Source: Kiritimatiellia bacterium (lineage in GTDB: Bacteria; Verrucomicrobiota; Kiritimatiellia; RFP12; UBA1067). From it: a stretch of DNA of 64,000 nt. The notes below the pieces were generated by a model that worked only from the letters and a program-made list of their open reading frames with translations, was not told where the DNA came from and made no database searches. Positions 38,827-54,676 of the stretch are shown piece by piece (the stretch's first letter is position 1; each line of letters starts with the position of its first letter). A program made the position numbers and the translations under genes. Where the stretch lies: the NCBI GenBank assembly GCA_045595285.1, contig JAZOAC010000071.1, positions 12,285 through 76,284 on the forward strand, in the 5' to 3' direction.

Positions 38827-38883
38827 AGAAATGTAAAAGTTATGTAAAAAAGTTTTTACATAACTTTTACATTTCTTTTACAT
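38827..38883. repeat. 50-bp perfect AT-rich palindrome (24-bp arms, 2-nt centre) containing ATGTAAAA/TTTTACAT octamers, plus one more TTTTACAT
   Basis: Left arm 38827-38850 is AGAAATGTAAAAGTTATGTAAAAA. The centre is AG. Right arm 38853-38876 is TTTTTACATAACTTTTACATTTCT and is the exact reverse complement, checked base by base. Octamer copies start at 38831 and 38842 (+) and at 38855, 38865 and 38876 (inverted orientation). Confidence 0.9.
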
Positions 38884-39002: not shown

Positions 39003-39128
39003 ATGAAGGAAAGACTGATCTGTATCGGCGGTTACATGCTTGCCGCCGCTCTTTCACTGCTGCTGCTTGTCGCGGTTGCCGAGCTGTCAATGCGGGATAC
39101 GGTCCCGTGCGCAACGCTGGAATGGTGA
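39003..39128 (+). CDS. possible small membrane protein (41 aa)
   Basis: AAGGAAAGGAA lies upstream of ATG 39003. It contains a single hydrophobic helix (ICIGGYMLAAALSLLLLVAVA). It is the C-terminal part of track ORF 38910..39128. Confidence 0.3.
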   Translation: MKERLICIGGYMLAAALSLLLLVAVAELSMRDTVPCATLEW

Positions 39129-39141
39129 AGGGGGGTGTGTC

Positions 39142-39738
39142 ATGGATTACTCAAGGAACGATCAGAATGGTGATTTCGAGGTGCGGCCACGCTATGTCTG
39201 CTGCCATCCGAACACTCAGGGGACTGGCACGTCGGTGAAGTTCGAGCTTCATCCAGCGCACGACTATGTTGAAGGGTCTGTGTTTGTCACGTTTGCCTCG
39301 CAGAAGACTCTGGGCTCCTACGGCGGCGGCAAACCGATACCGCCCACGTTCGACTGGGAGAACAGCGTCACGATACGCCTCACGATAAACGAGGTGGCGG
39401 AGATGCTGGAGGTGTTCCGCGGATACCGCGAAAAGTTGGGCGACGGGAAGGGACTGTTCCATACAACGGTGGAGAACAACACCGTCATAACGTTCGAACA
39501 CAGGCTCGAGCCGGCCCCAGGGTACCTCTTTGGGGTCTCACGGAAGAGTGTCGATGGTTCGCTCAAAAGGATGCGGATTCTCATTTCAATGAATGAATCG
39601 ATTGTCCTTTCTGAGGCTTTGGGAGCCTCGATGCTCTATATGGCATTTGGGGTCCCTAAGGTGATCCGGCGTGCCGACAGGAGGGGCGGACAGGAACGGC
39701 AGAAGTCTGTCCCTGTCAAGGAGGTAGCGGTGGCATGA
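39142..39738 (+). CDS. Whirly/PUR-like fold candidate (putative ssDNA-binding protein)
   Basis: GAAGGGGGG lies upstream of ATG 39142. The sequence has two beta4-alpha-like halves. VKFELHPAHDYVEGSVFVTFASQ...FDWENSVTIRLTINEVAEMLEVFRG and GLFHTT..VITFEHRLEPAPGYLFGVS...MRILISMNESIVLSEALGASMLYMAFG parallel the remembered plant Whirly layout (..REGMVMLQFAPA..RQYDWSRKQVFSLSVTEIGSIISLG; EFFHDP..KVLKVEPLPDGSGHFFNLSV..IYIPVTKAEFAVLVSAFNFVMPYLLG). Confidence 0.45.
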   Translation: MDYSRNDQNGDFEVRPRYVCCHPNTQGTGTSVKFELHPAHDYVEGSVFVTFASQKTLGSYGGGKPIPPTFDWENSVTIRLTINEVAEMLEVFRGYREKLGDGKGLFHTTVENNTVITFEHRLEPAPGYLFGVSRKSVDGSLKRMRILISMNESIVLSEALGASMLYMAFGVPKVIRRADRRGGQERQKSVPVKEVAVA

Positions 39739-40877
39739 GGTGCTGGGCGGCAAATTCGGCTTCCATCACGGAGCGTCATGTGCAGGCAATATGGTATGAT
39801 TCCGCATTGCGTCCTGCATGTCTGCGCACTGTTTTGGGCGGCGATGTGTCGGTCGTGGATCCTGGCGTCTGGAACCTGGAGGCGGGACCTGATTTCCGCC
39901 ACGCGGTTCTTGAGCTGGGACGCGACCGGCGCAGGGTCGAGGGTGATGTCGAAGTGCATCTCAAGCCTTCGGACTGGTCGCTTCACGGTCATTCCACCGA
40001 TTCTGCCTACGGCAATGTGGTGGCCCATGTGACATGGCATCAGGGAGATCCACCGCCCGATTTGCCGCCGGGATGCGTCTCCGTGTGCATCGGGAACTTC
40101 CTGCGTGCCCGGAACGACTTCTCTCCGGACGAAATAGACGTTGCGGCGTATCCGTACGCAAAGCTTCCTGCAAGCAGGCGTCCGTGCGAACGCTTCTTCG
40201 GGCAGAACCCCGATCTCGGTCTTGAGGTTCTGCGTGAGGCGGGTCGGCGCAGGCTGCTCGTCAAGGCTCACCGCATGCAGAAGCGGTTCCTTCGTGTAGG
40301 GGATCCTGAGCAGGTGTTCTACGAGGAGATGTTTGCCGCATTTGGATACGCGAAGAATTCGGTTCCGTTTCGGGTTCTCGCGGAAAGGCTTCCGCTGCAG
40401 GATCTGCCCACCTCCGAGGAGATGGCGTGCGAGGCGTTGAACAGCGTCGCTGCGCTTGAGGTCGCGGAGACGCACCCGTGGTGCAGGGCGAACATACGTC
40501 CCGCAAACCGGCCTGAGGTGCGAATGATGGATGCGGCCGCCCTGTTCACGGGCGGCAAGCCGCGCCACCTGGGCGCACGGTTCCTTGCCGCCTTGATGGC
40601 GAACGTGATCGTGCCGTATGCGATTGCGCGGGGCGTGGTGAAGGACGTTCCCAGATGGCTGCCGCCCGAATGCGCAAACGGGGTTACGCGTCTTGCGGCG
40701 TTCAGGCTGTTCGGGAGAGACCATAATCCCGCGCTGTACTCCGGGAACGGCGTACTGCAGCAGGGACTGATTCAGATACATCGCGACTACTGCCTTGCGG
40801 CACATCCGGATTGCGTCGCATGCAGACTTGTCGCGGAACTTGAGAATGTCTGTCGAGAGGAGGAGTCAAATGGATGA
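39735..40877 (+). CDS. DUF2851 family protein
   Basis: The ATGA overlaps the upstream stop. ERHVQAIWYD, VVDPGVWNLEAGPDFRHAVLEL, GDVEVHLKPSDWSLHGH and YGNVVAHV match the remembered DUF2851 N-terminal blocks. Confidence 0.75.
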   Translation: MRCWAANSASITERHVQAIWYDSALRPACLRTVLGGDVSVVDPGVWNLEAGPDFRHAVLELGRDRRRVEGDVEVHLKPSDWSLHGHSTDSAYGNVVAHVTWHQGDPPPDLPPGCVSVCIGNFLRARNDFSPDEIDVAAYPYAKLPASRRPCERFFGQNPDLGLEVLREAGRRRLLVKAHRMQKRFLRVGDPEQVFYEEMFAAFGYAKNSVPFRVLAERLPLQDLPTSEEMACEALNSVAALEVAETHPWCRANIRPANRPEVRMMDAAALFTGGKPRHLGARFLAALMANVIVPYAIARGVVKDVPRWLPPECANGVTRLAAFRLFGRDHNPALYSGNGVLQQGLIQIHRDYCLAAHPDCVACRLVAELENVCREEESNG

Positions 40878-42426
40878 CGAGAGGAAGATGAGATTGGCGA
40901 AATGCTATTCCGGAGCGGTGTCCGGAGTGAGCGCCAGATCGGTGGAGATCGAGGTGTGCGCGTCTGACGGCTCTCCGCAGTTCACTATTGTGGGGCTGCC
41001 TGATACCGCAGTCAAGGAGGCCAAGGACAGGGTGTCTACGGCAATCGGGAATTCGGGGTTCGCCAAGCCCGAGAGGAACATAACGGTGAATCTTGCGCCT
41101 GCTGACGTCAAGAAGGAGGGTCCACTGTACGATCTGCCGATTGCGGTGTGTCTTCTCGCCGCCACGGACAAGGTCCGGTGCAGGGACCTTTCCGAGTGGG
41201 GCATGGTGGGGGAGCTTGCGCTTTCTGGAGAGATTCGAAGGGTGCGCGGTGTCCTGCCGATCGTGATGGAGATGCGGCGAATAGGAAGGAAGGGCGTGCT
41301 GGTCCCTGTGGAAAACGCCGAGGAGGCCGCCGTCGTGGACGGAATATCGGTCTATCCGGTGCGGAATCTCCGGGAGGCATTGGGTTTCCTTACAGAGGAC
41401 GTCGAGATCGCACCTGTGTTTTCGGATATTTCGAGACTCGTCATGGCCGGACGCGATACGGGCGATGACTTTGCGGATGTCAAGGGTCAATACTTTGCAA
41501 AGGAGGCGATTGAAGTCGCCGTTGCCGGCGGACACAATCTGATGATGGTGGGATCTCCCGGCTGTGGCAAGACTATGCTTGCAAGGCGGATTCCGTCTAT
41601 CCTGCCTCCGCTGAGCGTCGAGGAGGCATTGGAGGTCACCCGCATCCATTCCGTGGCCGGCGTTCTGAAGCCCGGACAGCCGCTCATGGTCCATCGGCCA
41701 TTCCGGGCGCCGCACCACACGGCCTCGTCTGCGGGTTTGCTCGGTGGCGGAACGCATCCTGTGCCGGGAGAGGTGTCGCTTGCCCATAGAGGGGTTCTCT
41801 TCCTCGATGAGATGCCTGAGTTCAGCAGACACGCCCTTGAGGTGATGCGACAGCCGCTTGAAGATGGACATGTTGCGATATCGCGTGTGTCTGGGACGTG
41901 CGACTATCCGAGCCGGTTCATGCTGGTGGCTGCGATGAATCCGTGCCCGTGCGGATACTGGGGCGATTCGCACCGGGAATGCAGATGCTCGCGGACAAAG
42001 CGTCTGGAGTACCGCAACAGGGTGTCAGGTCCGCTGCTGGACAGGATAGACATTCAGATCGAGGTCACGCCCGTGTCTTACGAGGAGCTCGCGGAGTTGC
42101 CGACAGGTGAGCCGTCCGCCACGATAAGGGAACGGGTGGTTAGGGCGCGAGAGATCCAGCGCAGACGTTTCGCGGATGACCCTGACGTGTTCTGCAACGC
42201 AGAGATGCGATCAAGGGACATTGCCCGCTACTGTCGGCTTGACCGGGCGGCGCAGGGGATGTTGCGGGAGCGCTTGAGCAAACTGGATCTGTCCGCACGT
42301 GCGTACGACAGGGTGCTGAAGGTCGCGCGGACGATCGCGGATCTCGCAGGGCGTGACGCCGTAGGCGAAGGGGATGTGAACAGGGCGGCCGGGTGGCGGG
42401 CGCTGGACAGGAACTACTGGATGTAG
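40870..42426 (+). CDS. comM: YifB/ComM family Mg-chelatase-like AAA+ ATPase (competence helicase ComM)
   Basis: GGAGGA lies upstream of ATG 40870, and the gene overlaps DUF2851 by 8 nt. The N-terminus is Lon-protease-like (VEIEVCAS..FTIVGLPDTAVKEAKDRV). Also present are GHNLMMVGSPGCGKTMLA, VLFLDEMPEF and the Cys-rich PCPCGYWGDSHRECRC. Confidence 0.9.
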   Translation: MDDERKMRLAKCYSGAVSGVSARSVEIEVCASDGSPQFTIVGLPDTAVKEAKDRVSTAIGNSGFAKPERNITVNLAPADVKKEGPLYDLPIAVCLLAATDKVRCRDLSEWGMVGELALSGEIRRVRGVLPIVMEMRRIGRKGVLVPVENAEEAAVVDGISVYPVRNLREALGFLTEDVEIAPVFSDISRLVMAGRDTGDDFADVKGQYFAKEAIEVAVAGGHNLMMVGSPGCGKTMLARRIPSILPPLSVEEALEVTRIHSVAGVLKPGQPLMVHRPFRAPHHTASSAGLLGGGTHPVPGEVSLAHRGVLFLDEMPEFSRHALEVMRQPLEDGHVAISRVSGTCDYPSRFMLVAAMNPCPCGYWGDSHRECRCSRTKRLEYRNRVSGPLLDRIDIQIEVTPVSYEELAELPTGEPSATIRERVVRAREIQRRRFADDPDVFCNAEMRSRDIARYCRLDRAAQGMLRERLSKLDLSARAYDRVLKVARTIADLAGRDAVGEGDVNRAAGWRALDRNYWM

Positions 42427-42433
42427 GATCGCC

Positions 42434-44017
42434 ATGCGCGCGAACTGGACAGCGTTGCCGATCGTGATTCTCGCCGCAACCCTTATTGCAGGCGAAGCCG
42501 CTGGCTTCACGCTGTCCCGTTTTGCCGGACTCTGGTCATGGGCTGCGGCGTCTGTCATCCTGATGGTGTGTGCGACGGTTGGCTGGAGGGTGCGGCACGT
42601 CGTGCATCTGACCGTGTTTGCTGTCGGTGTCGCGCTCGCATGGCAGGTGGAGTCGAAGAGGATTGCGCTGGATGAACGTTCAGGGACGATTTCCGAGTCG
42701 GGCCGTCCGCCTGCGTTTACGCTGAGGGTTGAAGGCGATGCCGTTTGCCGCCGTGACAGGAAGGGGCATCGCATGGTGAGCTTCAGTTCATCTCTGTCAG
42801 GAGTGCCGGTGAAGGTGATTGCGCAGTTTCCGGAAGATGCTCGTGCGCCGGAGGTTGGTGAACTGTGGCGGTGTGCAGGATGGCTTTCCCGGCGCAAGAA
42901 TTCAGTAAGCCGCTATGCCGGCAGAACTCTGTGGGTGATGGATAGTCGCTTGATCGGGAAGGTCTCCGAGGCTGATGGTCGGTCTGCGGACGTGGCATAT
43001 CGGCGCTTGTCGGATTCGCTTATGCGGCGTGTCGGGAAAGGTGTGGAATGGTCACGTGAACTTCAGTCCTTCAGCGGAGCTATGCTGCTTGGGAGGAGGG
43101 ACGGAATACCGTACGGGCGGCTCGCCGTGTTCGCCGCCGCCGGGACGATACATGTGTTTGCCATATCCGGTCTGCATGTGATGCTGATCGCCGGACTGCT
43201 GAACGGCTTTCTGAAGGCGTTCGGACTCTCGCGGCGAATGTGTGCCGCATGTGCGATACCGATGCTTGCCGGATATGTGATGCTTATTGGCTATCCTCCA
43301 AGTGCGGTGCGTGCGGGATTGATGGTCTCGCTGTATCTTGGCGCGTATCTGTTTGGACGAAGGCCTGATTCGCTTGCGGCATGGGGTGTCGCTGCAATTG
43401 TGATTTTCGGGGTTTCGCCTGAAATGGCGCTGAACGTGGGATGTATGCTTTCATTCTCGGTCATGCTTGGAATCGTGCTCTGGATCAGGTGGTCGGGACA
43501 GTTCGCGTCTCCATTGGACGGTTTGATGCGACTTGCAGCGATAGAATCCATGCTTGGATGCGGACGGCGGAAGAGGGCCGTTCTATGGGTTCATGGAAGG
43601 CTGGAGTGGATTCTCGGTGCGCTTGGGATATCATTTGCCGCATGGATTGCGGGAGCGCCGATAGCGGCAGTGGTGTTCGGACGTCTGGCGCTTGGAAGTC
43701 TGCTCGTGAATGTGGCTGTCGTTCCGCTGGCGGGGATGGCAGTGGCATTCTCGGTGTTTGGGACGATTGCAGCATTCGTGTTGCCGCAGATAGGGATGAT
43801 CTTCAACAACCTTGCCGCTCTGAGCATCTATCTGATGTCGTGGCTTTCCGACATGGTTGTGAAGATTCCGTATTCATCAGTAGAGACCCTGCCATGGAGC
43901 TGGCTCGACTGCCTCATGTGGTATGTGGCATGGTTTGCGTTTTTCGCCCTGCTGACAAGGCATTTGCCGCGCAGGGAGTTCATACACGTAAGGGAATGGG
44001 AGAAAGGCGATGATTAG
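42434..44017 (+). CDS. comEC: ComEC/Rec2 DNA internalisation channel protein (no C-terminal MBL nuclease domain)
   Basis: Polytopic membrane protein. The N-terminal region is DUF4131-like. The competence-domain block is FAAAGTIHVFAISGLHVMLIAGLL. Its length of 527 aa ends right after the TM core. Confidence 0.85.
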   Translation: MRANWTALPIVILAATLIAGEAAGFTLSRFAGLWSWAAASVILMVCATVGWRVRHVVHLTVFAVGVALAWQVESKRIALDERSGTISESGRPPAFTLRVEGDAVCRRDRKGHRMVSFSSSLSGVPVKVIAQFPEDARAPEVGELWRCAGWLSRRKNSVSRYAGRTLWVMDSRLIGKVSEADGRSADVAYRRLSDSLMRRVGKGVEWSRELQSFSGAMLLGRRDGIPYGRLAVFAAAGTIHVFAISGLHVMLIAGLLNGFLKAFGLSRRMCAACAIPMLAGYVMLIGYPPSAVRAGLMVSLYLGAYLFGRRPDSLAAWGVAAIVIFGVSPEMALNVGCMLSFSVMLGIVLWIRWSGQFASPLDGLMRLAAIESMLGCGRRKRAVLWVHGRLEWILGALGISFAAWIAGAPIAAVVFGRLALGSLLVNVAVVPLAGMAVAFSVFGTIAAFVLPQIGMIFNNLAALSIYLMSWLSDMVVKIPYSSVETLPWSWLDCLMWYVAWFAFFALLTRHLPRREFIHVREWEKGDD

Positions 44018-44477
44018 AGAGATGTTCAGGCGTATGTTCCGCAACGGGCAGGTTGCCCTGACGTCAAGCTCGAACGCCAGTGTCCGGAGAGGGACCTGGG
44101 GCGAGAATGTGGCGGCGGCGCATCTCAGGCGCATCGGCTGGCGGATAGTTGGACGGAATGTGCGGCCATGCAAAAGCGATAGGCGCTGTGAACTGGACAT
44201 TGTGGCGTATGTGCCCGGTGAGCGGCAGGTTGTGTTCGTGGAAGTGAAGACACATCGCAGGCATTCGCCATATGCGAGCAGACTATGGGCTATAGATCGC
44301 CGGAAGAGGTCGAATCTGCTGAGGGCGAGCGCAAACTGGCTGATGTCGAGGAAATGGCACGGCAACTGCAGGTTTGACGTGATTGAGGTGTATGGCGATG
44401 AGGCGGGGGCAGCGCCTCCTGAGATTGATCACATCATGAACGTGAAGCTTTTCCCTCCCAACTGGCGCTTTTGGTGA
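44010..44477 (+). CDS. yraN: YraN family (UPF0102) endonuclease-like protein
   Basis: GENVAAAHLRRIGWRIVGRNVR..CELDIVAY....VVFVEVKT and RFDVIEV are present. Overlaps the comEC stop by 8 nt. Confidence 0.85.
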   Translation: MIREMFRRMFRNGQVALTSSSNASVRRGTWGENVAAAHLRRIGWRIVGRNVRPCKSDRRCELDIVAYVPGERQVVFVEVKTHRRHSPYASRLWAIDRRKRSNLLRASANWLMSRKWHGNCRFDVIEVYGDEAGAAPPEIDHIMNVKLFPPNWRFW

Positions 44478-44558: not shown

Positions 44559-45212
44559 ATGTCCAATCAGAGAAAAAAAGACGTCAGGCGGGCAGGTCCG
44601 GCAACAGCCGTTCCTGTGGAATCGCTCCACAAAGTCAATGCATGCCGGATTCAGGATCGAGAACTCTGCAACCTTCCTTTGCCGTCGTGCGGCAAGGCGG
44701 CGTTTCATGATGACGTTGTGAGTGTTGCCCTGATTGCCGAACGCCTGGTAGCGCTGTTGAATGCGCGTGGACTTGACTGTGCGACGGCGGAATCCTGCAC
44801 GGGAGGTGGCGTCGGTTCTGCGATCACTTCCGTGCCGGGATCGAGTTCCGTGTTTGCCGGTGGCGTGATCAGCTACGCAAACGAAGTGAAGCGTGATGTC
44901 CTTGGCGTGCCAGAGTCGGTGCTGGCTGAGAAGGGTGCTGTTTCGTCCGAGTGTGCGGCTGCGATGGCCGTGGGCGTCCGGAGACTGTTGAATGTCGATA
45001 TCGCGGTTTCGCTCACGGGCATTGCCGGGCCCGGCGGCGGCAGTGCGGAGAAACCGGTTGGACTTGTGTGGTTTGGCATCGCAACGGCGTACGGGGCGCG
45101 TACGGAGCGTGTGATATTCTCTGGAGACCGTGCTCGGATTCGTGCGGCGGCGGTAGTGCACGCACTTGGCATGCTCACGATTGCCGCCATGGCTCCTGGC
45201 ACTGCGACGTGA
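44559..45212 (+). CDS. pncC: CinA C-terminal-domain protein / nicotinamide-nucleotide amidohydrolase PncC
   Basis: ATAESCTGGGVGSAITSVPGSS, FAGGVISYANEVK, GAVSSECAAAMA and SLTGIAGPGGGS are present. The roughly 50-aa N-terminal extension is of uncertain reality, and an in-frame GTG at about 44712 is an alternative start. Confidence 0.8.
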   Translation: MSNQRKKDVRRAGPATAVPVESLHKVNACRIQDRELCNLPLPSCGKAAFHDDVVSVALIAERLVALLNARGLDCATAESCTGGGVGSAITSVPGSSSVFAGGVISYANEVKRDVLGVPESVLAEKGAVSSECAAAMAVGVRRLLNVDIAVSLTGIAGPGGGSAEKPVGLVWFGIATAYGARTERVIFSGDRARIRAAAVVHALGMLTIAAMAPGTAT

Positions 45213-45254
45213 AAGTCTCTTCCGGTGGACATGTGCCGCCCTTCGTCAAAATTA

Positions 45255-45263
45255 TGGTACAAT
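45255..45263 (+). promoter_or_regulatory. extended -10 promoter element TGGTACAAT (leaderless cpaB)
   Basis: The context reads aTTATGGTACAAT. Only 7 nt (AGCGACT) separate it from ATG 45271. Confidence 0.55.
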
Positions 45264-45270
45264 AGCGACT

Positions 45271-46083
45271 ATGAAACAGAAAATAGTCCTGATCGCCGCA
45301 GTTGTCGCCGGACTTGCCGCCGCGATACTGACGCGATTCTATCTTTCCTCCAAGGATTCGGAGATCGCCGCAATGAAGTCGCGCTTTGCCGAAAGATACG
45401 GAGTGATGGAAGTGCTCTGCTATGTCGAGAACGTGCCGGGCGGCACCATAATCTCTAAAAATCAGCTTGGGACAAAGCGCGTTCCCGCCGCAGGGTTGAG
45501 GGGGCAGGCCCTCGCCATCGAGAATCTTGGAGATGTCCTCGGACGGCGAATCGTGCTAGGCCACCGTACCGGGGACATCGTGTTCTGGGCGGACATTGAG
45601 GGCGGCAATCCGCGAGCCACAGGCCTGGCGGCGGACATAAAGAAGGGCATGCGCGCCATTTCGATAAACGCATCAGGAGCGGCCGCCGTCTCCGGAATGG
45701 TGAACCCCAACGACCACGTGGATGTCATCGGCACCTTTACGTTTCCGGATGAGTCCGGCCAGCGCAAGAACGATGCGATGGTCACATGCACCATACTCCA
45801 GAACGTGCTTGTCCTCGCCACGGGGAAGACGACCGCAAAGATGGCTGGGCGCATGGACGACGGTTCGGCCCAGAACGCATACTCCACCGTGACGCTTGAG
45901 GTCACTCCGCGTGAGGCCGAGATGCTTGCGTTCGCCGAGCAGATTCGTGGACGCCTTTCGCTGTCGCTCCGCAACCGCAGCGACGTGTCGTACGAGAGGG
46001 AACTTCCAAAGGTCGATTTCGAGAAGATCCGTTCCACGATTGAGGAGCTGAACCTCAAGCGCCAGCAGAAGTACGTAAAGTAG
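45271..46083 (+). CDS. cpaB: Flp/Tad pilus assembly protein CpaB (RcpC family)
   Basis: N-terminal TM IVLIAAVVAGLAAAILT. A SAF-like region is followed by GMRAISINAS.....GMVNPNDHVDVIGTF and NVLVLATG..........VTLEVTPREAEMLAFAE. Confidence 0.8.
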   Translation: MKQKIVLIAAVVAGLAAAILTRFYLSSKDSEIAAMKSRFAERYGVMEVLCYVENVPGGTIISKNQLGTKRVPAAGLRGQALAIENLGDVLGRRIVLGHRTGDIVFWADIEGGNPRATGLAADIKKGMRAISINASGAAAVSGMVNPNDHVDVIGTFTFPDESGQRKNDAMVTCTILQNVLVLATGKTTAKMAGRMDDGSAQNAYSTVTLEVTPREAEMLAFAEQIRGRLSLSLRNRSDVSYERELPKVDFEKIRSTIEELNLKRQQKYVK

Positions 46084-46095
46084 GCCGCATCCACC

Positions 46096-47787
46096 ATGAT
46101 CCTCACACTGCTCAAGCCCGGTCAGTCGACCCCTGTCACGGAGAATCTCCCCGACGGCAACTACATCGTCGGGCGCAGCTCGTTGTCCAGGATTGTGTTG
46201 GCCTATGCCGATGTCTCGGAGCGTCACGCTCTGATATCCGTGCGCGATGGCAAGGCAACGGTAGAGGACCTCAAAAGCGCGAACGGCACATATGTGAATG
46301 GCGTCCAGATAGACCGGCGAACGGCGCTCTCAGACGATTCGATCGTCCAGATCGGCGGCACCGTGCTTCGCATGACCGATTCGCAGCCGCAAAGGGATGC
46401 CGTCCCGGAACGTAAGGAGGCCGTCAGCGCTCCGGTGGAGCGGACTCCAGCCTCTGTCGCGACGGCGTCTCCGCAACCGTCGGCGGTTCCGCATGCAAAG
46501 GTTGATCCTCAGGCCACCCTGCGCCGGAAGATACGCGAGCAGATACAGGATGAGCTTATCGTGCGCATGGATCTGAAGCGGCTCACGGCCTCGGGTGTGG
46601 ATCGCGAAGGACTGGAGCGTCAGGCGCACGAGAAGATTTCCGAGATTGTGGCGGAGGTGATCAGGAGCGGGAAGCTTCCGCGTTCGATAGACCCTGAACG
46701 CATCAAGAAGGAGGTGTTCGACGAGGCACTCCGCCTGGGGCCGCTTGAAGATCTTCTGGACGATCCCTCCGTTTCTGAAATCATGGTGAACGGTCCGCAT
46801 CAGGTGTATGTGGAGCGTGGAGGGCGTCTCCAGCTTACGGATCTGCAGTTCGCCGACGATGCAAGCGTGAGCGCAATCATCGAGCGCATCGTCGCGCCGC
46901 TCGGCCGGCGCATCGACGAGTCCCAGCCGTATGTGGACGCGCGTCTCAAGGATGGTTCGCGCGTGAACGCAATCATCCCGCCGCTTTCGCTTTCGGGACC
47001 GTCCATCACGATCCGCAAATTCTCGAAAAAGACCCTGACGGTCGAGGACTTCATACGCTTTGGCACATGGAACGCAAATGCCGCCGCCTTCATGGAGGTG
47101 TGCGTCAAGCTCCGCAAGAACATCATTGTGGCCGGAGGAACGGGGTCCGGAAAGACGACCCTGCTCAATCTGCTTTCGTCGTTCATTCCCGAGACGGAGC
47201 GCATTGTCACGGTCGAGGACGCGGCCGAGCTCAAGCTTGTGCAGCCGCATGTCGTGCGGCTCGAGGCGCGTCCCGCGAACGTCGAAGGAAAGGGCGCGGT
47301 CACGATACGCGACCTCGTCAAGAACTGTCTTCGCATGCGTCCGGACCGCATCATCGTTGGCGAATGCCGGAGCGGAGAGGCTCTCGACATGCTCCAGGCG
47401 ATGAACACGGGACACGACGGGTCGCTCACGACGGTTCACGCGAACTCGCCGCGTGATGTGGTGTCGCGCCTCGAAACGATGGTTCTCATGAGCGGAATGG
47501 AGCTTCCGTCGCGCGCCATCCGCGAGCAGATCGCGAGCGCCGTGGACATAATAATCCACGAATCGCGTCTTGCGGACGGATCGCGCAAGGTCACAGCCAT
47601 CACCGAGGTGACGGGCATGGAAGGTCAGAACATCGTGATGCAGGACATCTTTGCGTTCCGCCAGAGCGGCGTGGACGAGAACGGCAAGATCGTTGGCGAA
47701 TTCCGTCCGACCGGTGCGATGCCTACATTCTTCGACACGCTCAAATCGCGCGGCATGAATCTTGATCCGGGGATATTCCAACCGTGA
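46096..47787 (+). CDS. cpaF: Tad secretion ATPase CpaF/TadA with N-terminal FHA domain
   Basis: The N-terminal GNYIVGRSSLSRIVLAYADVSERHALISVRDGKATVEDLKSANGTYVNGVQI is FHA-like. The C-terminal part is a VirB11/CpaF ATPase (DPSVSEIMVNGP, VAGGTGSGKTTLLN, RPDRIIVGECRSGEALDMLQAMNTGHDGSLTTVHANS). Confidence 0.9.
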   Translation: MILTLLKPGQSTPVTENLPDGNYIVGRSSLSRIVLAYADVSERHALISVRDGKATVEDLKSANGTYVNGVQIDRRTALSDDSIVQIGGTVLRMTDSQPQRDAVPERKEAVSAPVERTPASVATASPQPSAVPHAKVDPQATLRRKIREQIQDELIVRMDLKRLTASGVDREGLERQAHEKISEIVAEVIRSGKLPRSIDPERIKKEVFDEALRLGPLEDLLDDPSVSEIMVNGPHQVYVERGGRLQLTDLQFADDASVSAIIERIVAPLGRRIDESQPYVDARLKDGSRVNAIIPPLSLSGPSITIRKFSKKTLTVEDFIRFGTWNANAAAFMEVCVKLRKNIIVAGGTGSGKTTLLNLLSSFIPETERIVTVEDAAELKLVQPHVVRLEARPANVEGKGAVTIRDLVKNCLRMRPDRIIVGECRSGEALDMLQAMNTGHDGSLTTVHANSPRDVVSRLETMVLMSGMELPSRAIREQIASAVDIIIHESRLADGSRKVTAITEVTGMEGQNIVMQDIFAFRQSGVDENGKIVGEFRPTGAMPTFFDTLKSRGMNLDPGIFQP

Positions 47788-48461
47788 TTCTGCAGTTCGC
47801 CATAATTGCGGCAACGGCACTGTTTGCCGGCGGTGTGACGGCGTTCGTCCTCATGAAGATGGAGATCGACGCCGGTCGCCGCGGAAAGACCGCCTACGCA
47901 AAATGGCTGAACGCCAGATATGTGCGCAGGTTCGACGAACAGCTTACAGACGCGCTCGGCACGATGTCAAACGCCTTGAGGGCGGGCTTTTCGATCAGTC
48001 AGGCGTTTGAGTCCGTGGCGGAATCCGACGTGCATCCGATCTCCGACGAGTTTGCGCTGCTGCTTCAGCAGATGCGGGTGGGGATGAGCTTTGACGATGC
48101 GCTCGCCTCGCTTGAGAGCCGTATCGGGTCCGACGATCTCACGCTTGTGGTTACGTCCATTGACATTGCGAGAAAGACGGGCGGCAATCTCACGGAGATA
48201 TTCGACAGCATATCGGATACGATCCGCGCGCGCATGCGCATTGAACGCAAGGTGCGCACCCTCACCGCACAGGGCAGGCTTCAGGGGCTGATCGTATCTC
48301 TCATGCCTTTCTTCCTGTGCATTGTGATGACTATGATGAAGCCGGGGATGATGATCCCGTTTCTCACGTCGATGACAGGAATCGCGTGCCTTGCGGTAGC
48401 CTCGCTGATGGTGTTGGCCGGTTGGCTGATCATACGCAAGATCGTCACCATAAGGGTTTAA
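47784..48461 (+). CDS. tadB: Tad pilus inner-membrane platform protein (TadB/TadC, single T2SSF domain)
   Basis: The GTGA overlaps the cpaF stop. LTDALGTMSNALRAGFSISQAFESVA, LLLQQMRVGMSFDDAL and ARKTGGNLTEIFD are present, followed by C-terminal TM helices. Confidence 0.75.
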   Translation: MILQFAIIAATALFAGGVTAFVLMKMEIDAGRRGKTAYAKWLNARYVRRFDEQLTDALGTMSNALRAGFSISQAFESVAESDVHPISDEFALLLQQMRVGMSFDDALASLESRIGSDDLTLVVTSIDIARKTGGNLTEIFDSISDTIRARMRIERKVRTLTAQGRLQGLIVSLMPFFLCIVMTMMKPGMMIPFLTSMTGIACLAVASLMVLAGWLIIRKIVTIRV

Positions 48462-50975: not shown

Positions 50976-51764
50976 ATGAACAGGATACTTTTTGAGAAGA
51001 ATGAAATCGTTGGTGGATGCGCGGTGTTTTCCGATGAACGCGCCGAACACGTGTTGAACGTGCTGCATGGCGCATCCGGACAGATTCTCAAGACCGGCGA
51101 GATAGATGGATTGATCGGGACGTCCGTCATAGAGGACATCCGTAATCTGCATGAGCGCGAACCGGGTTCGGCCCAGCGCGGCAATGGTCTTCTTGCCGGA
51201 GAGATTGCGGTCAGGTGTTCTCATTTCGAGACGGCTCCTGAACCGTGGATCGACCTGATTCTCGCTCCGCCGCGTCCGCGGGTGCTGAAGCGTCTTCTTC
51301 CGCAGCTGGCGGCGATGGGTGTCGGAAGGATCGTGCTTGTCGGGGCGGAGAAGGTGGAGAAGTCCTTCTGGGGCGCACAACTTGTGAAAGAGGAAGTGTA
51401 CAGGCCTCTGCTCATCGACGGACTTATGCAATGCGGGACGACGTCCGTACCGACGATAAGGATAGAGAAGTCATTCCGGCGATACGCTGAATCGCGCATG
51501 ACAGACGAATTTGCCGATAGCGAGAAGATTGTCGCTCATCCCTCTACGGATTTTGCCCGGACGCAAAGGGCCGAAGATTCGGGGTCTCGGTCTAATAGCC
51601 GTCCAGTCGTGGCCATAGGGCCCGAGGGCGGCTGGACGGATGGCGAGGTTGCTTTGCTTGAGACGAAAGGGTTTGCCCGTTATTCGCTGGGATCCCGCAT
51701 TCTTCGCACCGATACGGCGACAATTGCGGTGATTGCCCAGCTTATGCAGGCGTTCAGAGTATGA
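50976..51764 (+). CDS. rsmE: RsmE-family 16S rRNA (uracil-N3)-methyltransferase, paralog 1
   Basis: RAEHVLNVL, ILAPPRPRVLKRLLPQLAAMGVGRIVLV and VVAIGPEGGWTDGEV......LGSRILRTDTA are present. Confidence 0.7.
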   Translation: MNRILFEKNEIVGGCAVFSDERAEHVLNVLHGASGQILKTGEIDGLIGTSVIEDIRNLHEREPGSAQRGNGLLAGEIAVRCSHFETAPEPWIDLILAPPRPRVLKRLLPQLAAMGVGRIVLVGAEKVEKSFWGAQLVKEEVYRPLLIDGLMQCGTTSVPTIRIEKSFRRYAESRMTDEFADSEKIVAHPSTDFARTQRAEDSGSRSNSRPVVAIGPEGGWTDGEVALLETKGFARYSLGSRILRTDTATIAVIAQLMQAFRV

Positions 51765-54676
51765 ACCCACCGCCGCGACTCACTGTTATTGAGGCGTCTG
51801 CCGGCACCGGCAAGACGTTCTCTCTCGTCACGCGTCTGCTCAGGCTCATCTTCGGGGGAACGGAGCCTGAGCGCATTGTCGCACTTACGTTCTCCCGTGC
51901 GGCGGCGGGTGAGATATTCAACAGCTTCATCGAGCGTCTTTCGGATGCGGCGGCGGATGATGCCGTTGCGGCGGCAGAAAGCGACAGGGTCGCCGCCGGA
52001 AGGAGTCTGGCAAAGGGCGATTTCGCCGCAATGCTCAGGAAGGTGATCGAGCGTCAGCATCTGTCTCTGATAGGCACGCTCGACAGTTTCCTTATGAAGA
52101 TAGTCCGCATGCTGCCGCTTGAGCTTGGACTGGAAGGCGAGATTTCGGTGCTCAGCGATTTCCGTGCGCCTGTTGAACAGGGCAGGCTTCTCGATGAGAT
52201 GATGGCGCTTGAGAGCGATGATGCGAAGCTGCTCTATCGCGATGCGTTCCGCCTTGCCTTTGACGGTGACGGATCGAAGACGTTCCTTGAGGAGTTTGCG
52301 GGTTTCATTTCAGAGTGGCATCAGCGGTTCCGAGACATGCCGGAGCGCGAGGCGTGGGGTGTGGCGAAGCGGATATGGGGCGATGCCGCGCCTGACGGAC
52401 TCGATGTGTCGATAGCCGATGTCCGGGCGTTGGCGGACGGGCTCTCCGCCTCTCCTGTCGCAGCGAAGCGTGGCGCGGACACATTCATCAGGGCCGTGCG
52501 CGAGTTCAGCGGGACGGTGAAGGATGCTCCGAAGTGCATGAAGGACGAGCCTCTCGCGGCAGAGGCTGTGGCGCGGATGCACCGCTGGCGCATCGGACGG
52601 GCTCTGCGCCGGACCGAAGGCATCTTCAGGCTCATGTACACGTATGAGGCGGCGTACAGGATGAAGGTGCGTCAGCGCGGGTTGATCACGTTCGATGACG
52701 TTCCGAGGCTGATCGGAAGCCTCGGTGCGGGAGTGCGTGCCCCTTTGGAGTACCGCATGGATGCGAAACTCGATCATTGGGCGCTTGACGAGTTTCAGGA
52801 TACAAGCCGTGGCCAGTGGTCGGCGTTGAGCAGCCTTATAGAGGAGAGCAGGCAGTCCGACGGAGGCAAAAGCGTGTTCATCGTCGGCGATCGCAAGCAG
52901 GCGATATACGAATGGCGCGGCGGCGACGTGCGCATTCTGGGCGAGCAGGTCGCGATGGCGGAGGAGAAGGGTTCGCTTGTCGAGTCGCGCCGCTATCTCG
53001 GACGAATCTCGGCGGCGGTGAACCTCATTTTCGACACGAAAACTATCCGTGGTGCGTTCAACATGGATGATGTCGGCGCGGAGTCCCAGTGGGAGTGTCC
53101 GGAGCACAGGAGCTTCAATGCAGAAAGCGAAGGCTTCGTAAATGTGATCCAGGCGGCAAAGTCGGGCTCGCAGGCAAAACAGAGCGACTTCTTCGGTCCG
53201 ATCGAGGATGAACTGAAGGCGGTCAGGCCCTGGGATCGCGGAATCACGAGTGCGATCCTCGTGCGCAACAACGGATTCGGCGAGGCGATACTTGCGCATC
53301 TCAAGGCCAACGGAGTGGACAAGGTCGTATTTGAGGGTGACAGCGGAGTGATGGACTCTCCGGTGCTCGTCGCGTTCACGATGCTTCTGAAGCTTGCGGA
53401 GCATCCATGCGACGAATACGCGTATGCGTGCATCAGGCATTCGCCGATCGCCGCCGCCATGTTCCCTGACGGAATTCCGGATGCGTCTGGGCTTTCGGCA
53501 AGCTTGCTTGCGGATTTCACGCGGCTCGGAATGGTTAGAAAGTTCCGCGAGGTCCGCGAGGCGTTGAAGAAGGTCCCTGACACCTGGAACGATTTCACAG
53601 AGGCGAGATTTGCAGATCTCATCAAGTGCGCCGCAGAGTTCGAGGATCTGAGGGATGAGACCGTAAGGCTTTCGGACTTCATCGAATATCTCGCGGAGCA
53701 TAGGCGCAGGGATTTCGCCGAAGAGGGCATGGTTCGCATCATGACGATGCATCAGTCCAAGGGACTGGGGTTCGACCATGTCATCGTTCCGTTCTACGAG
53801 TTCGACGATCTCTATGGCGGGCGGCATTCGGGTCCGTTGAAAGGAAATGATCCGGACTGGATTCTCGACAATCCGTCCGCAGATACCGATGCCACCGATC
53901 CTGTGCTTGACGAGGCGGAGCGGAAACGGCGTCAGTCGCAGCTGTACGCATCGCTGTGCCTGGACTATGTTGCGCTCACGCGGGCGAAGAAGGCCCTTAC
54001 CGTCATTCTGCATCCGCAGAACGCCAAACCGCCGCCGGAACCTGTCAGGTTCAGTGACTTGGTGCGGCTTGTCGGTCTTGAAACCGGCGGGGACAGGGAA
54101 TGGTATCTCAAATGCGGACGGAAGGAACGACCTTGCAATGCCGCCGGCGGAATGCCGCCCCCTGTACGGAGGAAGCGTGAATGCGTCGCCAAGGCGCGTC
54201 CGAGCGAATCGTACATAACGGGACTTTCGGCGGACTGTCTGTTCATGGATGATTACGGTGCGGGTGCAGAATACGGCAAGGAAATGCATGCGAAGTATGA
54301 AAAGGTCTCATGGATCGCGGCTGATGACGCAGAGGATGCCTTTGACAGGGTCTTTGTGAAGCCTGAGGGCTGCATTGAGCTTTGGCGTGAACGTTCGTAT
54401 GAGCTTTTCGTGGATGGCGCATGGGAGTCCGGACAGTTTGACCGCGTCGTTTTCAGCGGTGAAGGTATGGGCCGCAAGGCCGAGATATTCGATTTCAAGA
54501 CAAACGCGAAGCGTTCTGGCGAATCCGTGGAGGACTACGAGGCGCGTATGCGCGAAACCTACCTGCCGCAGATGTCCGCATACAGAAGGGCGGTGCATCT
54601 TCTGTCAAACATCCCGGTGGAGCGCATATCGGCACATCTTCTGCTCACCCGCACTCGAACGGTTGTAGCAGTATGA
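51761..54676 (+). CDS. UvrD/AddA-type helicase with C-terminal PD-(D/E)xK nuclease domain
   Basis: VIEASAGTGKTF (Walker A), LDEFQDTS, FIVGDRKQAIYEWRG and TMHQSKGLGFDHVIV are helicase blocks. The C-terminal nuclease block is QFDRVVFS....AEIFDFKTN......YLPQMSAYRRA (D..D.K plus QxxxY). The ATGA overlaps the rsmE stop. Confidence 0.8.
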   Translation: MNPPPRLTVIEASAGTGKTFSLVTRLLRLIFGGTEPERIVALTFSRAAAGEIFNSFIERLSDAAADDAVAAAESDRVAAGRSLAKGDFAAMLRKVIERQHLSLIGTLDSFLMKIVRMLPLELGLEGEISVLSDFRAPVEQGRLLDEMMALESDDAKLLYRDAFRLAFDGDGSKTFLEEFAGFISEWHQRFRDMPEREAWGVAKRIWGDAAPDGLDVSIADVRALADGLSASPVAAKRGADTFIRAVREFSGTVKDAPKCMKDEPLAAEAVARMHRWRIGRALRRTEGIFRLMYTYEAAYRMKVRQRGLITFDDVPRLIGSLGAGVRAPLEYRMDAKLDHWALDEFQDTSRGQWSALSSLIEESRQSDGGKSVFIVGDRKQAIYEWRGGDVRILGEQVAMAEEKGSLVESRRYLGRISAAVNLIFDTKTIRGAFNMDDVGAESQWECPEHRSFNAESEGFVNVIQAAKSGSQAKQSDFFGPIEDELKAVRPWDRGITSAILVRNNGFGEAILAHLKANGVDKVVFEGDSGVMDSPVLVAFTMLLKLAEHPCDEYAYACIRHSPIAAAMFPDGIPDASGLSASLLADFTRLGMVRKFREVREALKKVPDTWNDFTEARFADLIKCAAEFEDLRDETVRLSDFIEYLAEHRRRDFAEEGMVRIMTMHQSKGLGFDHVIVPFYEFDDLYGGRHSGPLKGNDPDWILDNPSADTDATDPVLDEAERKRRQSQLYASLCLDYVALTRAKKALTVILHPQNAKPPPEPVRFSDLVRLVGLETGGDREWYLKCGRKERPCNAAGGMPPPVRRKRECVAKARPSESYITGLSADCLFMDDYGAGAEYGKEMHAKYEKVSWIAADDAEDAFDRVFVKPEGCIELWRERSYELFVDGAWESGQFDRVVFSGEGMGRKAEIFDFKTNAKRSGESVEDYEARMRETYLPQMSAYRRAVHLLSNIPVERISAHLLLTRTRTVVAV

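Follow-up and report, generated by a model that had tools for sequence, protein, structure and literature searches.

A family of Whirly-related proteins in Kiritimatiellota and their phages, predicted to bind single-stranded DNA and encoded beside comM, yraN and recA

What does a conserved hypothetical protein do when its gene stands directly in front of a run of competence and recombination genes? The question is raised by a gene at positions 39142 to 39738 of a 64,000-nucleotide (nt) stretch of a Kiritimatiellia genome (contig JAZOAC010000071.1; hereafter, the window). An initial annotation, made from the sequence alone, had proposed that it encodes a bacterial protein of the Whirly fold that binds single-stranded DNA (ssDNA) and is dedicated to incoming transforming DNA. 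Our analysis points to a family related to plant Whirly and kinetoplastid MRP proteins, whose genes keep company with those for ComM, YraN, and RecA. We consider it moderately probable that the protein is a Whirly-type, probably tetrameric, sequence-nonspecific ssDNA binder that serves a ComM/YraN/RecA recombination module and tethers a partner through its C-terminal tail.

The 198–amino acid open reading frame (ORF) is a real gene. It lies on the forward strand, from an ATG at 39142 to a TGA at 39736 to 39738, with a Shine-Dalgarno–like GGGGGG run 8 to 13 nt 5′ of the ATG. One search recovered 161 homologs of its product, with clear conservation at the protein level. Database homologs are 198 amino acids long and span 100% of the query from the ATG; one of them, P0001, is 99% identical. 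This agreement in length and coverage supports a start at 39142. The mechanical ORF reaches back to an alternative TTG at 39040, which is an unlikely start because a conserved small ORF in another frame fills positions 39003 to 39128. Two antisense ORFs (39151 to 39501 and 39636 to 40805) were rejected as shadow ORFs, since the conservation sits on the forward strand. Conserved columns of the protein family comprise H22, G29, HPAH at 37 to 40, Q54, FDW at 70 to 72, R93-G94, G104, H107, and H120.

The predicted fold is that of Whirly proteins. An AlphaFold2 model of a single chain, built from a 35-sequence alignment, has a mean pLDDT (predicted score in the local distance difference test) of 85.7 and a predicted template modeling (TM) score of 0.77. 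Each 10-residue block from 21 to 170 scores above 90, and both ends are disordered (residues 1 to 12 and about 176 to 198, with a tail pLDDT below 50 to 70). As had been read from the sequence, the model consists of two β-β-β-β-α halves, the two-repeat arrangement with two antiparallel sheets that characterizes Whirly. According to DSSP, the first half has strands at residues 17 to 22, 30 to 37, 46 to 54, and 76 to 80, followed by a helix at 82 to 93; the second has strands at 105 to 108, 112 to 121, 127 to 136, and 141 to 149, followed by a helix at 150 to 169. There is an additional small β-hairpin at residues 59 to 66. When the model was compared with the PDB by Foldseek, ranks 1 to 14 were all plant Whirly structures (AtWHY1, AtWHY2, AtWHY3, StWhy2, and PBF-2; E 8e-7 to 1e-5, probability 1.0, target-normalized TM-score 0.62 to 0.78). 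Human PURA came next (E 7e-3, query- and target-normalized TM-scores of 0.36 and 0.46), and the remainder was noise. No MRP structure appears among the 50 PDB matches listed. A Foldseek search of BFVD gave weak matches to uncharacterized phage proteins, with no named jumbo-phage protein among the top matches. In the model, the long conserved amphipathic helix at 150 to 169 is compatible with a homotetrameric "whirligig" assembly, and the protein probably forms tetramers, as other Whirly proteins do.

Sequence comparison relates the family to the same superfamily, at an identity to plant Whirly of only 15 to 18%. Against Pfam Whirly (PF08536), the window protein aligns through residues 44 to 158 with profile positions 30 to 135 of 136 and scores 11.9 bits (E 0.2), below the gathering threshold of 23. 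Matches to this profile are found in 28 of 131 diverse family members, one of which, P0144, lies above the cut-off (25.9 versus 23 bits). A profile of the 131 members (A2), searched against PDB sequences, has a single significant match, Trypanosoma brucei MRP1 (2gia_B; E 3.9e-4, 22.9 bits, query positions 51 to 182), and matches StWhy2 weakly. A narrow profile (A1) had no match in the same database, where a phmmer search with the window protein gave one spurious response-regulator match only.

Direct comparison of the 131-sequence profile with StWhy2 by hhalign gave an E value of 6e-5 over 98 aligned columns. The aligned blocks pair FDWEN with YDWEK, LFHTT with FFHDP, and PGYLFGVS with SGYFISLS, together with the C-terminal helices, so that the blocks of the Whirly second half (YDW, FFHDP, GYF, and the C-terminal helix) are all present. 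The Whirly alignment that the initial annotation had given was thereby reproduced independently, and the relation it had seen to kinetoplastid proteins is borne out by the MRP1 match. The KGKAAL motif of plant Whirly is absent: the β1-β2 turn, which we take by strand order to be the corresponding position, reads PNTQGTGTS in the window protein and xKGTGSA in the family consensus, a loose resemblance only. Neither NCBIfam nor PHROGs has a family into which the window protein or a phage copy falls. Given the matches to Pfam Whirly, MRP1, and StWhy2, we conclude from sequence and modeled structure that the family is a divergent branch of the Whirly/MRP superfamily, touching Pfam Whirly.

The genomic neighborhood of the family is conserved. 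We searched by tblastn for the neighbors encoded in the window, and for RecA taken from locus L063, in all loci and counted them over 45 species-level loci; some contigs are incomplete, so the counts are lower bounds. The yraN gene is present in at least 35 of the 45 loci and comM in at least 29, and they directly adjoin the Whirly-family gene on the same strand in 27 and 17 loci, respectively. DUF2851 follows with at least 21 loci (directly adjacent on the same strand in 12), whereas comEC (at least 14) and recA (at least 12) are never directly adjacent. One or more of these five genes occurs in 43 of the 45 loci, in shuffled order; the family is thus conserved next to competence and recombination genes, as the initial annotation had expected.

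Four arrangements recur. That of the window is Whirly-DUF2851-ComM-ComEC-YraN; the others are Whirly-ComM-ComEC, a Whirly-YraN pair that stands alone among housekeeping genes, and ComM-Whirly-YraN-RecA(-DUF2851(-ComEC)), in which the Whirly-family gene stands mid-cluster. The recA gene lies inside the cluster in one Kiritimatiellota clade (L032, L034 to L038, L040 to L042, L045, L047, L051, and L063). This recA-containing cluster often continues with DUF2851, which puts DUF2851 in a recombination neighborhood too. The linkage outlasts several rearrangements among proteins that are 35 to 70% identical. Because it survives shuffled order at this level of divergence, it is strong genomic evidence for functional coupling of the Whirly-family gene to ComM, YraN, and RecA. 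ComEC is a less frequent neighbor (14 of 45) than YraN or ComM, and thus the link is to the recombination step, at the displacement loop (D-loop), more than to DNA uptake. YraN has been shown to be a PD-(D/E)xK ssDNA endonuclease that is required for natural transformation, has evolved jointly with ComM, with which it interacts, and acts in synergy with it on the D-loop made by RecA (10.1101/2024.02.06.579203). A Whirly-type partner is mentioned neither in that paper nor in other searchable literature.

An OmpR-type response regulator is encoded directly 5′ of the Whirly-family gene in L026 (3556 to 5776, with a histidine kinase) and L062 (6592 to 7843), and about 3 kb 5′ of it, with four genes between, in L063 (4117 to 4797); it may regulate the cluster, or its position may be coincidental. 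A reading of the locus as a defense system was set aside, the conserved context consisting of recombination genes; no PADLOC scan was made.

In cellular copies the chain continues past the fold as a tail of some 10 to 40 residues, by a very rough count from the sequences; its disorder was modeled for the window protein only. Phage copies end 2 to 10 residues past the fold, without a tail. The tail of the window protein is basic, with an isoelectric point (pI) of 11.4, and its tip follows a pattern, K[ED]VA(VA), that is conserved across the closest clade. The clade with the ComM-Whirly-YraN order ends in NVPAA or AQAAA. Several other clades end in [DE]xPF, LPF, DIF, or DLF (e.g., FPEDPF, INDPF, DDGALPF, and EDEPDIF; also ENPF and PDLF). 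In Escherichia coli, the C-terminal peptide of SSB, DDDIPF, recruits genome-maintenance partners. Because the PF tips resemble this peptide, they suggest, by analogy, a "binder plus docking tail" design. The SSB combination of a disordered linker and an acidic PF tip is not found in the window copy; relatives in other clades carry such tips.

The family is large. In an exhaustive hidden Markov model search, the matches made up about 700 clusters when grouped at 50% identity, and 372 of these reached E ≤ 1e-10. Proteins are 150 to 240 amino acids long in almost all of the 150 clusters listed, and the source names of family members are all "hypothetical protein." To find the 45 loci, a single genome of each GTDB species was scanned with sequence patterns. 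Since the patterns derive from the close alignment A1, these loci are biased toward Kiritimatiellota-like sequences, and the taxonomic range may be understated. Nearly all are metagenome-assembled genomes (MAGs) of Kiritimatiellae/Kiritimatiellia, or gut and rumen MAGs labeled Verrucomicrobia or Lentisphaerae; three loci with Firmicutes names are presumably binning errors. A second, word-indexed homolog search gave a taxonomy no wider than this. The family occurs in Kiritimatiellota and their phages.

Copies of the gene are found on at least six IMG/VR viral contigs of 25 to 70 kb, one of which carries lambda-type portal and capsid genes. On several metagenome contigs, the gene stands among runs of small genes without a Pfam match, in one case also with a portal gene. 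The neighbors of phage copies mostly belong to no family, are not conserved between phages, and give no pointer to function. A rough neighbor-joining tree, which carries no support values, intersperses phage copies among the cellular clades and so suggests that hosts and phages have exchanged the gene repeatedly.

Distant members and variants have other surroundings. P0267 (188 amino acids; L058/L059, 6600 to 7567) is encoded 21 nt 3′ of a canonical SSB gene, whose 126–amino acid product has the tail ...ETDENLPL; the surroundings of this pair are cellular and include ClpB, RRF, and VWA genes. P0184 (L060, 6001 to 7053) is a 350–amino acid variant, extended at the C terminus by a helical part of about 170 residues, in a mobile element–like context of methyltransferase, DUF7168, and DUF6717 genes. 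P0317 (L066, 355 to 4511), a 240–amino acid variant, is encoded just 5′ of a 977–amino acid AEP-TOTE/DEAD/ResIII helicase with a DUF559 endonuclease-like domain.

In the window, the Whirly-family gene is the first large gene of an operon (Table 1).

Table 1. Coordinates of the Whirly-family gene, its parts, and the neighboring genes in the window.
Feature	Position	Strand	Evidence
Small conserved ORF, 41 amino acids, candidate first operon gene	39003..39128	+	Ribosome-binding site AAGGAAAGGAA; tblastn
Whirly-family gene, 198 amino acids	39142..39738	+	ORF, ribosome-binding site–like run, homologs, AlphaFold2, Foldseek, hhalign
Predicted Whirly core, residues 13-175, two β4-α repeats	39178..39666	+	pLDDT, DSSP, conserved columns
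Predicted disordered basic C-terminal tail, residues 176-198, tip KEVAVA	39667..39735	+	pLDDT, pI, conservation
DUF2851 gene	39735..40877	+	PF11013, E 2.4e-36; start overlaps Whirly stop
ComM/YifB Mg-chelatase-like AAA+ helicase	40870..42426	+	TIGR00368, E 2e-181; start uncertain
ComEC-type channel protein	42434..44017	+	PF03772, E 2.5e-48; TIGR00360, TIGR00361
YraN (UPF0102) PD-(D/E)xK nuclease	44010..44477	+	PF02021, E 2.5e-20; NF009154; PDB 3fov, E 1.8e-5
CinA (competence/damage-inducible) C-terminal-domain protein	44559..45212	+	PF02464, E 1.3e-55

The 41–amino acid ORF (MKERLICIGGYMLAAALSLLLLVAVAELSMRDTVPCATLEW) has a strong ribosome-binding site and stops 13 nt before the Whirly-family start. 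It was found by tblastn at the matching upstream position in L007 to L015. A hydrophobic stretch in its sequence suggests one membrane helix, and the product is possibly a small membrane component or an operon leader. On the other side, the ATGA overlap of the Whirly-family stop with the DUF2851 start, noted at the outset, is present (GCATGAGG, 39735 to 39738). The tblastn segment boundaries of the two genes coincide in L007 to L010, L012, L014, and L015, which suggests that the overlap is kept in these seven close loci.

A confident AlphaFold2 model of the DUF2851 protein (pLDDT 86.6) has an N-terminal α/β domain, with invariant D53, D71, E73, and H75, and a large helical C-terminal domain, with invariant C353, C360, and C363. 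A whole-chain Foldseek search against the PDB gave no match (best E 1.5), and the PDB sequence search was also negative. DUF2851 may be a PD-(D/E)xK nuclease, with which D53, D71, E73, and H75 are compatible.

The ComM protein has the Pfam domains ChlI, Mg_chelatase, and Mg_chelatase_C. Its longest ORF, from a TTG at 40795, overlaps DUF2851 by 83 nt. TIGR00368 aligns only from residue 38 of this ORF, which makes M26 at 40870 (overlapping by 8 nt) or M32 at 40888 (not overlapping) the probable start. The overlap of DUF2851 with comM that had been reported therefore holds for a start at 40795 or 40870 and disappears if translation begins at 40888; whichever start is right, the genes are packed as one operon. 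As the initial annotation stated, comEC and yraN follow comM, and they overlap each other by 8 nt. The 527–amino acid ComEC homolog has a Competence domain and a weak DUF4131 match; a C-terminal metallo-β-lactamase nuclease domain was not detected in it. Neither SSB nor RecA was found in the window by tblastn with one query each, which is a weak test.

Directly after cinA, at 45166 to 48461 on the same strand, are Tad/Flp-type pilus genes that encode RcpC/CpaB, a T2SSE ATPase with an FHA domain, and a platform protein of the T2SSF type. Since some bacteria use Tad-like pili to take up DNA, the entire region may form a single island for DNA uptake and recombination. A further DNA-repair gene nearby, for a 971–amino acid UvrD/Rep-family helicase, lies 7 kb downstream on the same strand (51761 to 54676).

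Upstream, at 38827 to 38876, lies a perfect AT-rich palindrome with a 24–base pair stem, although the window as a whole has 58% GC. Its units ATGTAAAA and TTTTACAT are repeated, and a further TTTTACAT follows just after; these five copies of the motif are all that the window contains. In L007, a related but shorter palindrome (TTATGTCAAAAAATTTTGACATAA) lies 5′ of the operon, and none was found in the other ten close loci. The palindrome of the window could terminate the CxxCxxCC gene or act as an operator. When the upstream region was scanned against Rfam, it matched only microRNA-like hairpins, all below threshold.

Taken with its neighbors, the protein is probably an undescribed, lineage-specific accessory factor of the machinery that integrates imported DNA in gut Kiritimatiellota, because its gene is almost always encoded beside the genes for ComM, YraN, or RecA. 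The modeled fold and the gene neighborhood together point to ssDNA binding. The β-sheet platform would coat ssDNA, be it the strand that comes in or the one displaced in the D-loop, and the C-terminal tail, flexible and with a short conserved tip, would tether a partner protein, much as the C-terminal tip of SSB does. The Whirly-family protein would assist the machinery of ComM helicase, YraN nuclease, and RecA, which extends and resolves recombination D-loops, for example in natural transformation. Both the strand that is bound and the partner contacts of the tail are what we infer from this scheme. An extra accessory factor fits better than the substitute for DprA or SsbB with which the protein had at first been compared. 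Since 92.6% of bacterial genomes are reported to have DprA (10.1101/2024.02.06.579203), its replacement by the Whirly-family protein is unlikely. DprA itself is reported to recruit ComM (10.1101/2024.10.21.619469).

Several observations count against an ssDNA binder that serves this module. With a pI of 7.2, the core is close to neutral, which lends no support; KGKAAL is missing; and the tip in the window protein, KEVAVA, is not of the acidic PF type of SSB. The best PDB sequence match, MRP1, is an RNA binder, and the phage protein ChmC prefers RNA. Linkage to ComEC is weak (14 of 45), and one arrangement consists of the pair with yraN alone, among housekeeping genes. Gene order, moreover, tells us what a protein works with, not how it works. 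A more tentative picture would have a previously undescribed prokaryotic and phage branch of Whirly/MRP that contributes a lineage-specific third subunit to the machinery for transformation D-loops, ComM-YraN(-RecA), coats the displaced or incoming strand, docks through an SSB-like tip, and marks the prokaryotic ancestry of organellar Whirly and MRP; as a whole, we think this picture unlikely.

The family might instead have come from phages and bind single strands, or maintain the genome, in a general way, with a role in replication or the nucleoid like that of organellar Whirly; its proximity to comM and yraN would then be a product of shared regulation or history and not of a direct functional partnership. 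The interleaving of phage with cellular copies in the rough tree, the six or more IMG/VR contigs that carry the gene, the distant members beside SSB or in mobile element–like contexts, and the position of L062 near dnaA and dnaN would all agree with this. Yet linkage to ComM, YraN, and RecA survives independent rearrangements across clades at 35 to 70% identity, a classic signature of functional coupling, and the start of DUF2851 overlaps the stop of the gene in the window and, as the tblastn boundaries suggest, in the seven close loci. We judge such an origin and role rather improbable.

An RNA-binding or RNA-annealing protein that acts on transcripts, as MRP1/MRP2 or ChmC do, has a small chance of being correct. 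The best structural matches are ssDNA-binding plant Whirly proteins, with no MRP among the 50 matches listed; at the sequence level, however, MRP1 is the only significant PDB match of the family profile. ChmC, a characterized phage protein of the Whirly fold, binds RNA better than DNA, and across families the fold binds both nucleic acids, whereas the conserved neighbors here are all genes of DNA transactions (ComM, YraN, RecA, and ComEC, with SSB in L059), and no RNA-metabolism gene recurs nearby.

Least credible is a transcriptional regulator of the com/rec operon with the upstream palindrome as a possible operator: the earliest description of Whirly was as the transcription factor PBF-2, the gene is the first large one of the operon in the window, a related palindrome exists in L007, and the response regulators upstream in L026, L062, and L063 indicate that the region may be regulated, but the gene stands mid-cluster in the ComM-Whirly-YraN-RecA arrangement, phage and SSB-adjacent copies do not suit a dedicated operon regulator, the palindrome is missing from the other ten close loci, and an SSB-like tail tip is not a feature of regulators.

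An ssDNA-binding accessory factor of the ComM/YraN/RecA module would matter in several ways. Whirly proteins are described as plant-specific guardians of organelle genomes (PMC9070903). In the more tentative picture above, the bacterial and phage branch would give a prokaryotic ancestry to organellar Whirly and MRP proteins, which are now described as plant- or eukaryote-specific. A bacterial and phage family with detectable homology is a concrete lead on the origin of the Whirly fold, and it parallels other phage-derived proteins of organellar DNA replication. The ComM/YraN pair has only just been defined as a processor of transformation D-loops, and the strand choice of the nuclease was left open in that work (10.1101/2024.02.06.579203). 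A predicted ssDNA binder encoded between comM and yraN-recA is a candidate for keeping YraN off the incoming strand and on the displaced strand. SSB-like tail tips on a fold other than the oligonucleotide/oligosaccharide-binding (OB) fold would represent a clear case of convergent "hub" architecture. With about 700 clusters, and with the window protein below curated thresholds in Pfam, NCBIfam, and PHROGs, defining the family would name many hypothetical proteins.

The novelty claimed at the outset stands in part. Whirly-like folds are already known in prokaryotic systems, in ChmC, the N-terminal domains of Shedu, and the PC4-like and PUR proteins, but a family linked to ComM, YraN, and RecA is undescribed: in the searchable literature we found no bacterial and phage family that is large, stands alone, has two repeats, and combines sequence homology to plant Whirly and MRP with SSB-like tails and this linkage.

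With plant Whirly (WHY1/2/3, StWhy2, and PBF-2 p24), which supply the best structural matches, the family shares the predicted two-repeat β4-α fold, the blocks [FY]DW, FFH/LFH, and GY[FL], and the C-terminal amphipathic helix. Plant Whirly proteins act in the fidelity of homologous recombination and in repair, and a link to these processes in a bacterial-type genome is a further point in common. The family differs in being bacterial and phage-borne rather than organellar, in lacking KGKAAL, in its hairpin at 59 to 66, in the conserved histidines at H22, HPAH 37 to 40, H107, and H120, in its tailed tip, and in its operon linkage to ComM, YraN, and RecA. MRP1/MRP2 of kinetoplastids share the Whirly fold and, for MRP1, detectable sequence homology. 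They form an RNA-binding heterotetramer of mitochondrial editing, a nucleic acid "matchmaker" that promotes annealing, whereas the bacterial context holds no pointer to RNA. ChmC of the Chimalliviridae jumbo phages, a phage-encoded homotetramer shown to bind single-stranded nucleic acid, shares the Whirly fold and a disordered C-terminal region; it is set apart, by its description, through β-β-β-α repeats, RNA preference, condensates, and a place in the messenger RNA biology of the phage nucleus.

SSB/SsbB and DprA have in common with the family a predicted ssDNA binding in transformation or recombination and, in many members, an SSB-like, PF-tipped tail. The fold is unrelated, being neither an OB fold (the window protein has no match to Pfam SSB, PF00436) nor the Rossmann domain of DprA, and a distant member adjoins a canonical SSB gene, so the family is not simply a replacement for SSB. 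Finally, the sPC4/Whirly-like N-terminal domains of Shedu and other defense proteins, the PC4-like YdbC, and PUR proteins belong to the same broad PC4-like fold class, for which single-stranded nucleic acid binding has been proposed or shown. Those are half-size dimerizing or nuclease-fused modules, whereas the window protein is predicted to be a full two-repeat protein that stands alone.

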